A stretch of 52,024 nucleotides of DNA from a virus (taxonomy: Duplodnaviria > Caudoviricetes). A program made the position numbers and the translations under genes. The stretch is taken from IMG/VR virus record IMGVR_UViG_3300017913_001692, positions 1 to 52,024 of that record. The stretch is one strand, 5' to 3'. Below, one piece after another: positions 31,746-43,023 of this stretch. How positions within the stretch are numbered: the first letter of the stretch is position 1; each line of letters starts with the position of its first letter. Below the pieces are notes generated by a model. The model was not told the origin of the DNA and ran no database searches. It saw only the letters and a program-made list of their open reading frames with translations.

Positions 31746-31811
31746 GTTGCCCTCGTGTTGTTTTGTTTAACTTACTCTTATATACTACTGTCAAAGTGTG
31801 TGTAGGTCAAC

Positions 31812-32141
31812 CTAAAATGGTTGCCTACATTCGATCTTATCAGCAGGCTCAAAGCCCACTGCCGCACACTTGTAGAGTGTGCCGTCTACTAGGAAGTGAT
31901 CGCCCATTGCACTTGAACGGTGACCCCATTCGTTGCCCTGCTCGTCTACGTGAAGAGGTTCAACAACAGTTACACGATCGTTGCCATCTGCTGGCATGTT
32001 CTTTGACCAGCTGTCCATGATGTTCTGTGTCCAACGGTAAGCATATTCACATGCTTCCTCGTATACTGCACACGGTGTGTCCACTGTTGCAATGTGTACT
32101 GGTGTCTCTTCAAACGCTGTGTGGTAAACTTTAACTTGCAT
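31812..32141 (-). CDS. small early protein
   Basis: Own promoter and GAGGGC leader; RSSAMGD motif. Confidence 0.82.
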   Translation of the reverse strand: MQVKVYHTAFEETPVHIATVDTPCAVYEEACEYAYRWTQNIMDSWSKNMPADGNDRVTVVEPLHVDEQGNEWGHRSSAMGDHFLVDGTLYKCAAVGFEPADKIECRQPF

Positions 32142-32212
32142 ATTGCCCTCGCTTTGTTAGTTTATATATAGATAATAACTTCATAATAAGGAGAAGTCAA
32201 CCTTTTTTGGAT

Positions 32213-32333
32213 AAAAAAATGCCCGGGGAGAGCTACATGAGGGCGGTGAGCTCAATCCCCGGGCCAAGTGCAGAAGAGCGTGAGGGCTTACGTCTTCTGC
32301 GAGATCACTGCGAGCGTTGAGGGCGTTAACGCT
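32213..32333 (-). ncRNA. three tandem hairpins with GCCCUC loops ending in an intrinsic terminator (candidate 3'UTR-derived sRNA)
   Basis: Stems AGCGTT/AACGCT, GCAGAAGA/TCTTCTGC, GCCCGGGGA/TCCCCGGGC; U7 tract follows on the - strand. Confidence 0.6.
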
Positions 32334-33327
32334 TCATCACAGTGTTCTCAGCCATAGCTTCCCACTTAGCAGGAAATGCTTTGGCCAAGTCGGCAACCTT
32401 CAGTACTGTTCTTAGCGACAGCTCACGAAGCCTTGCCTTATTAATGTCCACGAAATCGATGATGTCCTGGACAATATCGTCTGAGAACATATACTCTGTG
32501 AGCATGCCGTCTCTGACGATCTGTTTGATACGGAGCATCTTCTCTCGCTCGGTATCAATCGTTAAGTCCACGTAGTGGCATCTACTCTCTAGTGCCATAA
32601 GGTGCTCTCGGATCTTGCCTTTGGCTTTGTCAAATTTAAGGTTAGTGATAAAGATAGCACTGCCCTTAAATTCAAATGAATCCGGTACACCTTCGTTACG
32701 CAACTTGAACGAATCTGTGTTCCAATGTATACGTCTTGTCTTCTTGGAATCTAACGCCGCTTTGAGGATGTTCAAGCTCAGCTCATCGCTGAAGATTGAA
32801 TCACAGTCATCGAACACGATAACGTTATCCTTGTCTGCGTACTTGTATAGCTTGACGTAGAGTCCAATAGCACTCATAGCACCTTTGACTACCTCATACT
32901 TGGCAGGTCTGTCGCCAAGTTGCGCAATCAAGTCATGCTTGCCTAGTACTTTTTCTACACCAAACGATTTACCAACACCTGGAGGTCCTGATACGATCAT
33001 AGCTCGCACATCACCTTTCTTGGTAGCGCGAGTCATGTCCTCCAACATGTCAAATCTCTCACGTAGCCTTTCGATAACTTCTTCGTCCGACTCTTCACGC
33101 ACATGTACTTCTGAACCTGTGGTCTTGTACGCATTCTCGCTTGAGACTGAAATCTTAATATTACGATCTGGGAAGCCTGCTACACTCTTGCCATCTACTG
33201 TTACGTAGCCGCCCTTGGCTCCTACTTTAAAATGTTCTACTAGAGGGAACACCATACCTGCGAGGTCTACGTCTTTGCCTCTGATCTTGTATGTGCCTTC
33301 TAGTATTTCGATATTGCCCTGTTTCAT
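32326..33327 (-). CDS. AAA+/P-loop ATPase
   Basis: GPPGVGKS Walker A, IVFDDCD Walker B, FITN sensor, ALESR Arg finger; start MKQGN after AAGGGCAAC. Confidence 0.88.
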   Translation of the reverse strand: MKQGNIEILEGTYKIRGKDVDLAGMVFPLVEHFKVGAKGGYVTVDGKSVAGFPDRNIKISVSSENAYKTTGSEVHVREESDEEVIERLRERFDMLEDMTRATKKGDVRAMIVSGPPGVGKSFGVEKVLGKHDLIAQLGDRPAKYEVVKGAMSAIGLYVKLYKYADKDNVIVFDDCDSIFSDELSLNILKAALDSKKTRRIHWNTDSFKLRNEGVPDSFEFKGSAIFITNLKFDKAKGKIREHLMALESRCHYVDLTIDTEREKMLRIKQIVRDGMLTEYMFSDDIVQDIIDFVDINKARLRELSLRTVLKVADLAKAFPAKWEAMAENTVMKR

Positions 33328-33409
33328 AAAGTTGCCCTTCTGTTTTGTTAACTTACTCTTATACATTACTATCTTATGCCCTCAATGTCAACCTCTTTGT
33401 TACCAAAAT

Positions 33410-33467
33410 GTTACGGGGGAATCCTATTCCTGGATGAGGGCGTCCTTGGAGGACTCTACCCCGTAAC
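33410..33467 (-). ncRNA. hairpin with a CGCCCUCA loop directly 3' of tRNA-Leu
   Basis: GTTACGGGG/CCCCGTAAC outer stem with a GGA/TCC inner stem. Confidence 0.55.
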
Positions 33468-33468
33468 T

Positions 33469-33554
33469 TGGTACTCGCGGCCGGACTCGAACCGGCACGG
33501 CCTAAGGCCTACGGATTTTAAGTCCGTTATGTCTACCTATTCCATCACGCGAGC
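33469..33554 (-). tRNA. tRNA-Leu(TAA)
   Basis: GCTCGCGTGATGGAATAGGTAGACA..ACGGA-CTTAAAA-TCCGT, long variable arm, GTTCGAGTC, encoded CCA. Confidence 0.95.
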
Positions 33555-33557
33555 GAT

Positions 33558-33634
33558 TGGCCTCTCCTGAGAGATTCGAACTCCCGACCCACGGCTTAGA
33601 AGGCCGTTGCTCTATCCAGCTGAGCTAAGGAGAG
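33558..33634 (-). tRNA. tRNA-Arg(TCT)
   Basis: TAGCTCAGCTGGATAGAGC, ACGGC-CTTCTAA-GCCGT, GTTCGAATC, CCA. Confidence 0.95.
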
Positions 33635-41040: not shown

Positions 41041-41173
41041 TCTGTCATCTCCTTGACAATACTAGCACCTTGATTGATGCTATCTTTACCCATATCCATC
41101 ATGCCATCAATATCTCCGGGATTAAGGTATAGGTAACAAGCGGCCGCACCTAGTGCGAAAAATATAATCGCTC

Positions 41174-41398
41174 TCATTTTAACCATCCTTTCTTTAATCT
41201 TTCAATCATAGCCTCTGCATCAGGGTATCTTTCCATCAAATCAATCTGTTCATCGATCGAAGCGATACGATCCAGTTCTTTTTGTGTCGTTTGGTCGACA
41301 CGTTCTTTTGGTGTATCGAACAAGCCAAACCCTTGCATTTCTACATAGGGCTGGGTCCATGACCAATCATAACTCCATTTGCCGTTAGGTTTACTCAT
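41174..41398 (-). CDS. hypothetical protein
   Basis: ATGA coupling with the upstream ORF. Confidence 0.7.
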   Translation of the reverse strand: MSKPNGKWSYDWSWTQPYVEMQGFGLFDTPKERVDQTTQKELDRIASIDEQIDLMERYPDAEAMIERLKKGWLK

Positions 41399-41619
41399 GC
41401 CATTGCTCCTTCTACTTGGGCCACCACTGCCTTAGAATGTTTGCAATAGCCATGATAACCAAAGCCCATGCAATCACATTCAAAGCCTTTGTCTGTCAGT
41501 TCGACAGAATATTCGTTGCCTTTTGAGCCTTTCATAGGCCAGACAATGCCTACCATCCAATGATCCTTAGGATCAAAGGACTTGGGCTTCAAATACTTCT
41601 TCTGGAATTTCCGGCTCAT
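41395..41619 (-). CDS. SWIM zinc-finger protein
   Basis: GSKGNEYSV...CDC..F....CKH (CxCx(n)CxH). Confidence 0.78.
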   Translation of the reverse strand: MSRKFQKKYLKPKSFDPKDHWMVGIVWPMKGSKGNEYSVELTDKGFECDCMGFGYHGYCKHSKAVVAQVEGAMA

Positions 41620-41739
41620 ATTCTTCCTCTTCGTTTTGAACTCTATCAAAGATATCCACCTGGTGAATACCGTGAGCTCTGATAAAAACATCTCTGCTCA
41701 TCCATGCGGCATCTTCTTCCATGCCCAAGATCCAATCAC

Positions 41740-41940
41740 TTACTCTTCCCATATTACCCTCTGTCCTTTGAAATTTTTGTAAATCTCAGCCACCCTATAA
41801 TTGTATTGGGCTTCATTACGGCTGAGGTTCCTAAGATGCATCTCCCAGATAGCTCTAGTATCATCTGGCAAATCTGACTTCAAGAGCCTCGCTATCGAAT
41901 CCGCTCTTTGAAACTGTCGTTCTTCTGAATAAGGACCCAT
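41740..41940 (-). CDS. hypothetical protein
   Basis: AGGAG RBS before MGPYS. Confidence 0.7.
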   Translation of the reverse strand: MGPYSEERQFQRADSIARLLKSDLPDDTRAIWEMHLRNLSRNEAQYNYRVAEIYKNFKGQRVIWEE

Positions 41941-42230
41941 TATGCGATCTCCTTGATATGGGTCAGCATTGTTGCCGGCACTCGCCATTGTTGACCGCCG
42001 ATATGTGCTGTCACTACCACATACTTTCTGTTGACCTTTTTCACAGTGGCATTCACTTTGCCGCCTGTCTTAGAACTTGTAAATTGAACCATGTCGCCAA
42101 CCATAAAATTGCGAACAGCCTGACGTGATAGATACTGTCGCTTGAGCTTGATAGCCTCAACGACTTGACTCAGCTCGTCGTTGTCCATTTGATAGATTGC
42201 TTCTACCGCCTTCGTAACATTATTTGACAT
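41940..42230 (-). CDS. small early protein (SH3/KOW-like C-terminus)
   Basis: Own promoter; VGDMVQF..V.KVNRK..V..WRVP. Confidence 0.8.
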   Translation of the reverse strand: MSNNVTKAVEAIYQMDNDELSQVVEAIKLKRQYLSRQAVRNFMVGDMVQFTSSKTGGKVNATVKKVNRKYVVVTAHIGGQQWRVPATMLTHIKEIA

Positions 42231-42295
42231 ATTGCACCTCTGTTGTTTTGTCCTCATTGTCTATACAGTATATGACCAACAAGACATAAAGTCAA

Positions 42296-42487
42296 CTAGT
42301 TTTGGTAATCATTCCATTTGAGAATTTCGATCTCACCCTTGTCGTCTTTCTTGTATTTCAAGAAACCTTGTGCGATCAAACTGTCAATGGTCTTACCAAT
42401 TGACTTTTCTGCTATCTGTGGGCCAAGCCACCATAGGGTAAAGAAGGTGCCGCTAAGATAAGCGACACCCATCCATAGATAATCCAT
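42296..42487 (-). CDS. small membrane-anchored protein
   Basis: N-terminal TM segment; TAATG coupling. Confidence 0.72.
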   Translation of the reverse strand: MDYLWMGVAYLSGTFFTLWWLGPQIAEKSIGKTIDSLIAQGFLKYKKDDKGEIEILKWNDYQN

Positions 42488-42939
42488 TATGCTTCGTCCC
42501 AACCCATGTTCTTCATAACTTCTTGTGATTGAGCTTGCTCAACATAGTCGAACAGTGGAAAGCCACCTTGCTCTTTACCGTGGTCGTTTACGATCCAACC
42601 ATTGTCTGTGTAAAGATATGCATATTCTTCCATGTCTGCAATCCAACTTGGAATGTCATCATATTCGGAGATGTGCAGTTCTTCACCACGATCTCTGTGG
42701 TATGCGATTGTGATTTCATCCGCAGGTGTTTCAAAACTATGACCTGCTGTCTGTGAATTTAGATTAGGCTTGAGTGCCGAAATAGAACCTAGTTCGACGA
42801 GTGCAACCGCACGGTCGAATGAATTATAGTGTCGCTTGAGCATCTCACCATTGTGCTCTGGGTAACCATCCCAATGACAATATACTGAACGGATCTTTCC
42901 TTCTGGTGTTTTGTAAGCGATGTTTGAACGTGTAGCCAT
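42487..42939 (-). CDS. phage early protein (TRS.I / YCHWDGY motif)
   Basis: Own promoter and GGAGGGC leader. Confidence 0.85.
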   Translation of the reverse strand: MATRSNIAYKTPEGKIRSVYCHWDGYPEHNGEMLKRHYNSFDRAVALVELGSISALKPNLNSQTAGHSFETPADEITIAYHRDRGEELHISEYDDIPSWIADMEEYAYLYTDNGWIVNDHGKEQGGFPLFDYVEQAQSQEVMKNMGWDEA

Positions 42940-43023
42940 TTGTTGGAGCCCTCCTTAGGCAGTTTTGTGTTTCATTGTTCTTATACTATAATGTCGGTTG
43001 ACGCAAAGGTCAACCACATTTGG

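Follow-up and report, generated by a model that had tools for sequence, protein, structure and literature searches.

A 52,024-nt record of a tailed-phage genome (IMG/VR record IMGVR_UViG_3300017913_001692; Caudoviricetes), here called the window and analysed over its whole 52 kb, raises the question of why one hexamer, GAGGGC, stands before the start codons of a dozen short genes, and why its exact complement, GCCCUC, is displayed in hairpin loops of the same strand. The comparison with related loci indicates that the leader word (the tag) and the loop word (the seed) very likely base-pair directly, and the probable purpose of this pairing, as judged from sequence, would be the repression of a class of early genes at their ribosome binding sites (RBSs).

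A leader word and its complement in one island

The window contains an island of short ORFan genes, which are likely to be early by analogy with PA5oct and T4-like phages. The promoters of the island have the form TTGAC-N17-TAnnnT and are repeated on the minus strand from about 31.4 to 44.6 kb (Table 1). GAGGGC occurs 25 times on both strands of the window, against 9.2 +/- 3.1 expected and with 0 of 100 shuffles reaching 25; twelve of the minus-strand copies are situated 3-8 nt 5' of an ATG that opens a reading frame of 51-191 amino acids. Among the automatic gene calls the tag was found on 11 of the 35 island genes and on 0 of the 58 genes elsewhere, the twelfth tagged gene (at 36502) having been mis-called by the gene caller. 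The original prediction of about a dozen GAGGGC early leaders, in excess of the background, with other Shine-Dalgarno (SD) sites in genes elsewhere, was therefore confirmed at every site that it named, one position being corrected (34548, not 34547). The tag is confined to the first genes behind the promoter, and the downstream island genes use ordinary GGAG or GAGG sites; about five promoter-proximal island genes have no tag or carry variant words. Two other minus-strand copies in the island, at 33378 and 43569, are not ribosome sites. Extra AAGGGC words (38517-38522, 38901-38906 and 44057-44062, minus strand) are located 5' of the true SD, a few bases into the predicted transcripts.

The complementary word is also in excess: the minus strand of the island has five GCCCTC copies, compared with a shuffle mean of 0.99 (2 of 300 shuffles reach 5). 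All five lie in predicted loops, with the hexamer 0.82-0.98 unpaired, and the five hairpins (H1 to H5) are where they had been described. Three transcription units carry the seeds at their 3' ends: that of the ATPase, that of the tRNAs and the element ending in H5. When folded against shuffles, the triple hairpin had a z-score of -4.25, the tRNA trailer one of -3.76, and the 35740-35790 stretch (H5) taken by itself one of only -0.29. The tRNA-Met/Arg(UCU)/Leu(UAA) cluster is present beside the ATPase in many relatives, in varying order.

The promoter of the opposite strand that converges on H5 has no open reading frame (ORF) longer than 11 amino acids behind it. The RNA predicted to start there begins with the tag-like words AAGGGCAA and GGAGGGAA and runs into H5, and may be a decoy RNA, a candidate role that is unproven. 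Similar ORF-less reverse promoters were identified in loci L004, L015, L026, L028, L049 and L071, with partly shared blocks, and no consensus structure was found for these opposite-strand RNAs.

Table 1. Tags, hairpins and carrier features of the window.
Feature	Positions	Strand	Gene or evidence
GAGGGC tag	31749..31754	-	gene 31422-31745
GAGGGC tag	32145..32150	-	gene 31812-32141
GAGGGC tag	34023..34028	-	gene 33723-34019, first upstream of tRNAs
GAGGGC tag	34278..34283	-	gene start 34271
GAGGGC tag	34548..34553	-	gene start 34541
GAGGGC tag	34697..34702	-	gene start 34693
GAGGGC tag	34967..34972	-	gene start 34962
GAGGGC tag	36116..36121	-	gene start 36112
GAGGGC tag	36509..36514	-	gene start 36502
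GAGGGC tag	38494..38499	-	gene start 38490
GAGGGC tag	40197..40202	-	gene start 40193
GAGGGC tag	42948..42953	-	gene start 42939
H1 hairpin, overlapping the ATPase stop codon, loop AACGCCCUC	32313..32333	-	folding
H2 hairpin, loop with AGCCCUCA	32270..32300	-	hexamer 0.98 unpaired
H3 hairpin and U-tract (terminator-like), loop CCGCCCUCA	32213..32264	-	folding; inner-stem covariation in 28 sequences
H4 hairpin, 3' trailer of tRNA-Leu, loop CGCCCUCA	33410..33467	-	z -3.76
Structured element of about 105 nt ending in H5 (35751-35778; loop GCCCUCGUAGAAAG) and U-tract	35742..35845	-	kept in L014, L016, L020, L026, L049
Cluster of tRNA-Met, tRNA-Arg(UCU) and tRNA-Leu(UAA), carrier of H4	33469..33712	-	tRNA models
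AAA+ ATPase, T4 NrdC.10 homolog (phrog_1250), carrier of H1-H3	32326..33327	-	family scans; generic AAA+ fold only
Opposite-strand promoter of early type, converging on H5	35576..35745	+	promoter and ORF scan
Island, likely early: short ORFan genes in PeSL-like cassettes, with a sigma70-type promoter repeated before them	31400..44600	-	promoter and family scans

Conservation and joint change in relatives

A search with the ATPase as query gave 80 loci, 55 of which, together with the window, constitute clade A (51 distinct at the stop region). Between the ATPase and the next promoter GCCCUC is present in 1-5 copies in all 51 distinct clade-A loci, the window included. The 136 copies are 0.95 unpaired, whereas 574 other GC-rich hexamers of the same untranslated regions (UTRs) are 0.15 unpaired; on the opposite strand the value for GCCCUC is 0.73, and in the window the plus-strand motif is partly paired, in agreement with the earlier claim that the word is free on one strand and partly buried on the other. 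The positions beside the hexamer, which is itself invariant by the selection of the copies, carry at most 0.70 bits. In 28 terminal hairpins the inner stem is 90.5% paired (27.5-51.1% in slid controls) and has undergone 22 double-sided changes, against 5.5 in shuffled sequences, although this stem was named by hand and not by automatic consensus, so the count leans towards that structure. The expectation of a kept loop on covarying stems was thus borne out. RNAalifold, applied to a MAFFT alignment of the 28 hairpins (L041 left out of it), gave a consensus of 4 pairs, formed between the loop and the outer arm; none of them covaried, and this structure was rejected; the failure is explained by outer stems that are out of register, and single molecules may still adopt the alternative fold. 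The window shares the element ending in H5 with five loci, and 11 of its 22 pairs show double-sided change. Among the tRNA trailers of clade A, 29 of which are distinct, 15 contain the shorter word GCCCU. The sixth tag position among 427 clade-A leaders is U in 29 cases (a wobble with G) and A in 18, and GAGGGG does not occur.

The main evidence for pairing comes from lineages in which both words are different. Leaders were gathered by promoter and ATG alone, and two further scans added lineages. In clade B (20 loci) the leader reads GGAGCG(AA) in all loci but L069, and the tag/seed pair GGAGCGAA/AUUCGCUCC is present in 19 of the 20; AUUCGCUCC occurs in 1 of 56 clade-A loci, where it forms no stable hairpin, and in 0 of 5 untagged loci. 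The 9-mer ATTCGCTCC was found in the same 19 loci, mostly as a loop ahead of a terminator. The GCGAGG tag is matched by a CCUCGCUC seed, and L083, L084 and L086 have GCGAGG or GGAGCGA leaders against CCUCGCUC(C): L083 combines AGCGAGG leaders with a loop containing CCUCGCU, and L084 and L086 have leaders of both types (GGAGCGA and GCGAGG) and a loop, AUCCUCGCUCC, that suits both. Other matching pairs are GGAGCAA leaders with a UUGCUCC seed (L126), GAGGGAA leaders with an added UUCCCUC loop (L045), and pairs of their own in L092 and L069. The frequencies of the words at start sites change accordingly, AGGGC being found 6.17 times per 10 kb in clade A and 0.78 and 0.20 times in groups B and C, and GGAGC 0.70 times in clade A and 6.44 and 6.07 times in the other two.

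In 124 ATPase clusters at 93% identity, derived from 230 loci, a seed was scored in 39/39 clusters tagged AGGGC, 26/27 tagged GGAGCG, 18/21 tagged GGAGCA and 1/1 tagged GCGAGG, the clade-A label being conditional on the clade and the seed patterns having been set after inspection. A seed was also scored in 14 of 24 clusters without a dominant tag and in 2 of 12 with too few leaders, and several lineages have neither tag nor seed. Since tag and seed switch together, pairing of the hairpin loops with the leader words, as originally proposed, is very likely, and a shared protein-binding motif, which had been offered as the alternative, explains the switch poorly.

In group C the seed sits in a single-stranded linker before a conserved hairpin, which is why it was missed by the hairpin filter. 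Just 3' of this seed, loci L203-L279 (e.g. L212:5875-5950) have the conserved hairpin with GGGGGUAGUGUCCC and then a second hairpin, whose loop is often GUGAAG or GUGAGA; the tRNA trailer of the window opens with the similar word GGGGUAGAGUCC. A second tag, GGACAC, was considered for the conserved GUAGUGUCC loop of group C and rejected, as it reached only 0.42 per 10 kb versus 0.07-0.26.

The genes that carry the seed differ between the lineages. The leader of the window ATPase has AAGGGC at 33334-33339 (minus strand). In groups B and C the seed is located 3' of a 90-amino acid winged-helix gene (PF14090) in 63 of 70 distinct 3' UTRs (e.g. next to L052:11126-11410 and L212:5606-5875), homologs of which are encoded by two Pelagibacter phages, HTVC008M and Mosig, and by DLP_6, a phage of Stenotrophomonas. 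The leaders of this gene have the promoter in 43 of 61 distinct cases and the tag in none of the 61, which is what a carrier exempt from repression would show. No close homolog of it is present in the window or in most clade-A loci; a search of 5 records for the gene, for which a positive control was lacking, also found none. It is estimated that about 730 IMG/VR stretches match the ATPase query, not all of them from tagged lineages.

No cultured members of the system were found, PA5oct and HTVC008M being without a clear seed. HTVC008M has the winged-helix gene, and a seed was not found in it. PA5oct (MK797984) has AGGAGUAG in three promoter-proximal leaders (22534, 35142 and 248734), including that of an NrdC.10-like gene whose 3' UTR hairpin holds AUGCUACU in its 3' arm; no clear complementary free loop was found in this phage, including in its abundant noncoding RNAs (ncRNAs) ncRNA001 and ncRNA002.

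Proposed mechanism and its alternatives

The distance between tag and ATG is 3-8 nt for 460 of 469 tags (standard deviation 2.0), whereas the distance to the -10 box has a standard deviation of 5.1; the tag is thus spaced to the ATG, not to the -10 box, and its anatomy points to translation. In large contigs the tags concentrate in one island (16 of 19 in G003, with 346 genes, and 10 of 13 in G005, with 227 genes). Each tag consists of a GAGG or GGAG core, which serves the 16S rRNA tail, and 2-5 private bases, so the seed would bind tagged leaders better than the 16S tail does, and better than it would bind most ordinary SDs. Median duplex energies are lowest with the seed of the leader's own group. 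Calculated without the loop constraint and with the canonical 16S tail, the median duplex energy of the window leaders is -13.2 with their own seed, -5.4 with clade-B seeds and -8.5 with the 16S tail, and that of the L061 leaders is -12.3 with their own seed and -7.8 with the window seed; the tagged leaders of the window have about -13 kcal/mol with the seed versus -5.0 to -12.7 with the 16S tail.

The SD of the promoter-proximal, likely early, genes of the phage bears a private extension, and its exact complement is displayed by the loops of predicted hairpins. Transcripts of the ATPase and tRNA units and of the H5 element would probably leave stable RNAs from their 3' ends, H4 being freed by tRNA maturation, and H1-H3 and H5 remaining where decay stops at stable 3' hairpins. 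These RNAs would pair in trans with the tagged leaders and block ribosome loading, lowering early protein synthesis as a class. Seeds and targets lie behind promoters of one class, so that such a circuit would amount to delayed negative feedback and would help to end the early phase. Confidence is high in functional pairing of some form; occlusion of the tagged RBSs in trans by stable 3'-end RNAs, with delayed feedback on early translation, is the probable form, put forward with more reserve, its discrete RNAs, action in trans and repressive outcome being inferred.

Several observations weigh against this interpretation. The match in the window is only 6 nt, with energies that ignore the loop constraint. 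Within their own leaders the window tags are only 0.28-0.97 unpaired. The clade-A carrier, the ATPase, is itself tagged in 30 of 46 cases. RNA-library contigs of relatives from two studies span H1-H4 (e.g. 32267-32497 with four differing letters in X1, 32213-32544 in X3 and 33032-33494 in X2), and these are unstranded, with no ends visible and no discrete RNA. RNA runs contained only 5-7% of the words. The independent switches of tag and seed number about five, not dozens, because kin share states, and within clade A only one of six loop variants tracks a leader variant, in 3 loci. Group C has GGAGCA in 159 leaders versus GGAGCG in 38 (32 loci, not dereplicated) with a UCGCUCC seed, which is a match of 5 nt. 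No matching seed was found for the tag CGGAGAAA of L213 (11 of 22 leaders) or for GGAGAUC of L036, in records that are 73% and 39% complete; these lineages are predicted to carry a UUUCUCCG or GAUCUCC seed. Finally, the sign of the regulation is not fixed by sequence. In L213/L214 a private tag ACGGAGAAAC stands in 11 of 22 leaders, and a seed for it was not found.

It is possible, though unlikely, that the pairing is real and that the RNA acts as a guide or adaptor for a protein, such as the NrdC.10-like ATPase, the winged-helix protein or a host ribonuclease, the outcome being cleavage, decay or activation. Two conserved early genes do have the seeds in their 3' UTRs, a match of 5-6 bp is short for repression unaided, and T4 is described as employing a nuclease on early SD sites (PMC3014915). 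However, the seed occurs on unrelated scaffolds and carriers (the ATPase UTR, the tRNA trailer, the H5 element and the winged-helix UTR, in a loop or in a linker), which speaks against a single dedicated protein partner, and the ATPase model matched generic AAA+ folds only.

Another explanation, and quite an unlikely one, is that pairing acts mainly in cis, the 3' hairpins folding back on their own or the next leader in read-through transcripts for autoregulation or looping, with the tag spread by recombination. This would agree with the frequent tag on the clade-A carrier, with the few strong terminators found on the minus strand of the island and with the recombination of PeSL cassettes between the -10 box and the SD, as described in PMC2839356. 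It is opposed by the B and C carrier, which is never tagged, by the distance of window tags from the nearest hairpin, which lies as much as about 7 kb downstream of them, and by tRNA processing, which would cut H4 from its transcript.

An explanation without any RNA pairing, in which a phage protein (e.g. the winged-helix protein) would recognise the word on double-stranded DNA in both orientations or the leaders would simply be homogenised cassettes, is very improbable. Although the winged-helix gene adjoins the seed in groups B and C and the promoter-leader cassettes are near-repeats, the inverted copies are found in loops of covarying stems, their orientation is strictly complementary on one strand, the tag keeps its spacing to the ATG rather than to the promoter, and no close winged-helix homolog is present in the window and most clade-A loci.

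That the loop RNAs guide recombination and do not control translation, with the promoter-leader cassettes of the hypervariable island as the recombining units, is barely credible even though the cassette order varies among relatives and PeSL shuffling is documented (PMC4122927, PMC2839356). A word of six nucleotides is hardly specific on DNA, the tag occupies the place of an SD, and none of the island proteins scanned with Pfam and PHROGs matched a recombinase family. Equally little can be said for a tag that fits a variant 3' end of the host 16S rRNA, with loops that mimic this end: cuckoo loops do resemble the anti-SD (PMC4615179), but other genes of the phage use ordinary GGAG or AGGA sites, and a search of 185,579 species genomes, with many metagenome-assembled ones lacking 16S, for a 16S-type end followed by the clade-A word GCCCTC gave 4 matches, none of them 16S-like.

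Phage setting, related systems and meaning

The window belongs to a phage with large relatives, whose IMG/VR contigs reach 357 kb. The nearest homologs of its helicase in cultured phages are those of the jumbo phages PA5oct (53%) and Atu_ph07 (51%). The top plasmid matches of its hemA are in Alphaproteobacteria (54-56%), and one island gene is 56% similar to a gene of Roseobacter phage CRP-207, which together suggest a marine alphaproteobacterial host. hemA (5-aminolevulinate synthase) is one of the host-like metabolic genes at 47804-51540, along with those for a copper-binding azurin-family protein, DUF1127 and DUF454; a reading frame truncated by the window end resembles, by eye, a phosphate-binding protein. 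An untagged gene at 41940-42230 (minus strand; SD word GAGGUG) gave a weak match to Pfam Phage_ProQ_C_like (E 5.8e-5, below the cut-off) and might encode an RNA-binding early protein. Long ORF-poor stretches (36570-37400 and 30450-31400) flank parts of the island and contain repeated AAATCATTG-like words, possibly related to an origin or to packaging.

In Escherichia coli, a tRNA-Leu operon yields from its trailer the functional RNA 3'ETS-leuZ, which sponges small RNAs (sRNAs); H4 differs in carrying the complement of mRNA leaders. Two features of sRNAs that occlude RBSs are present here, an unpaired seed complementary to the target RBS and compensatory change of seed and target, the exceptions to the latter being L213, L036 and the 5-nt match of group C.

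The original prediction compared the hairpins with the cuckoo/CcsR sRNAs of Alphaproteobacteria (RSs0680, ar14), described in PMC4615179 as hairpins standing side by side, in which the stems vary and the C-rich loop, for which RBS pairing was proposed, is conserved. The architecture is indeed similar, with 2-4 adjacent variable-stem hairpins there, three in the window and 1-5 motif copies in the 51 loci. The loop motif did not stand, since CCUCCUCCC of cuckoo is replaced here by GCCCUC, and when the window and 6 related loci were compared with Rfam, only tRNAs attained a gathering score, with no cuckoo or c4 match. As far as that description goes, cuckoo targets the generic SD, whereas the target here is a private phage tag and the RNAs are phage-encoded, in 3' UTRs and a tRNA trailer. 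The window hairpins are not members of the cuckoo family.

The c4 antisense RNA of P1 and P7 is likewise a phage RNA whose loops target the RBS: they bind around it and block translation, sequence-specifically, as the basis of P1/P7 heteroimmunity (PMC12197685). It is described as acting on one antirepressor mRNA of a temperate phage, whereas here 10-20 promoter-proximal ORFan genes share one SD tag and the RNAs are simple hairpins. C-rich loops also begin pairing at the RBS of several mRNAs in Staphylococcus aureus RNAIII and the UCCC-loop sRNAs (PMC4615179). These bacterial RNAs address ordinary SD sites with longer pairing and are not known to use a class-wide private tag. Class-wide shut-off through an SD word of early mRNAs is known from the T4 RegB endoribonuclease, which inactivates them at GGAG with an A-rich stretch (PMC3014915). 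RegB is a protein nuclease, whereas recognition here would be by RNA pairing, and the tag-seed system is possibly its RNA counterpart; the RegB family was not found among the proteins of this 52-kb fragment in general scans (37 proteins with Pfam, 46 with PHROGs). The island also resembles the PeSL cassettes of T4-like phages, in which a repeated sigma70 promoter, SD and start codon precede ORFans of hypervariable regions (PMC2839356, PMC4122927); it too is variable, and its ORFans follow a sigma70-like promoter with SD and start codon. Some stems of the island overlap -35 boxes. An antisense partner is not described in the portions of these papers that were available ('antisense' 0 times in PMC2839356, 'complementary' 0 times in PMC4122927).

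Large lytic phages make abundant ncRNAs of unknown function, according to PMC7318152 and PMC10914365. In the open-access literature no description of this tag-seed scheme turned up, and within RBS-targeting control by small RNAs a phage gene class addressed through a lineage-specific SD extension, in what is very probably a base-pairing system, is unusual. A tentative extension is that aquatic jumbo phages possess a natural orthogonal RBS/anti-RBS code, in which each lineage marks its entire early regulon by a private SD extension, matching RNAs shut the regulon and the ORF-less opposite-strand RNA with tag words may be a decoy that sets the timing. Superinfecting phages with the same code would also have their early genes silenced by such lasting RNAs, and tag-seed pairs would then define RNA-based immunity groups.

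The end of the early phase in lytic phages that use the host RNA polymerase is only partly understood, and the scheme, if true, would be an RNA-only solution. A widespread family of uncultured jumbo phages would then carry a readable code, in which the target class may be predicted from the seed and the seed from the target class, and the system would supply natural, mutually orthogonal RBS/antisense pairs.

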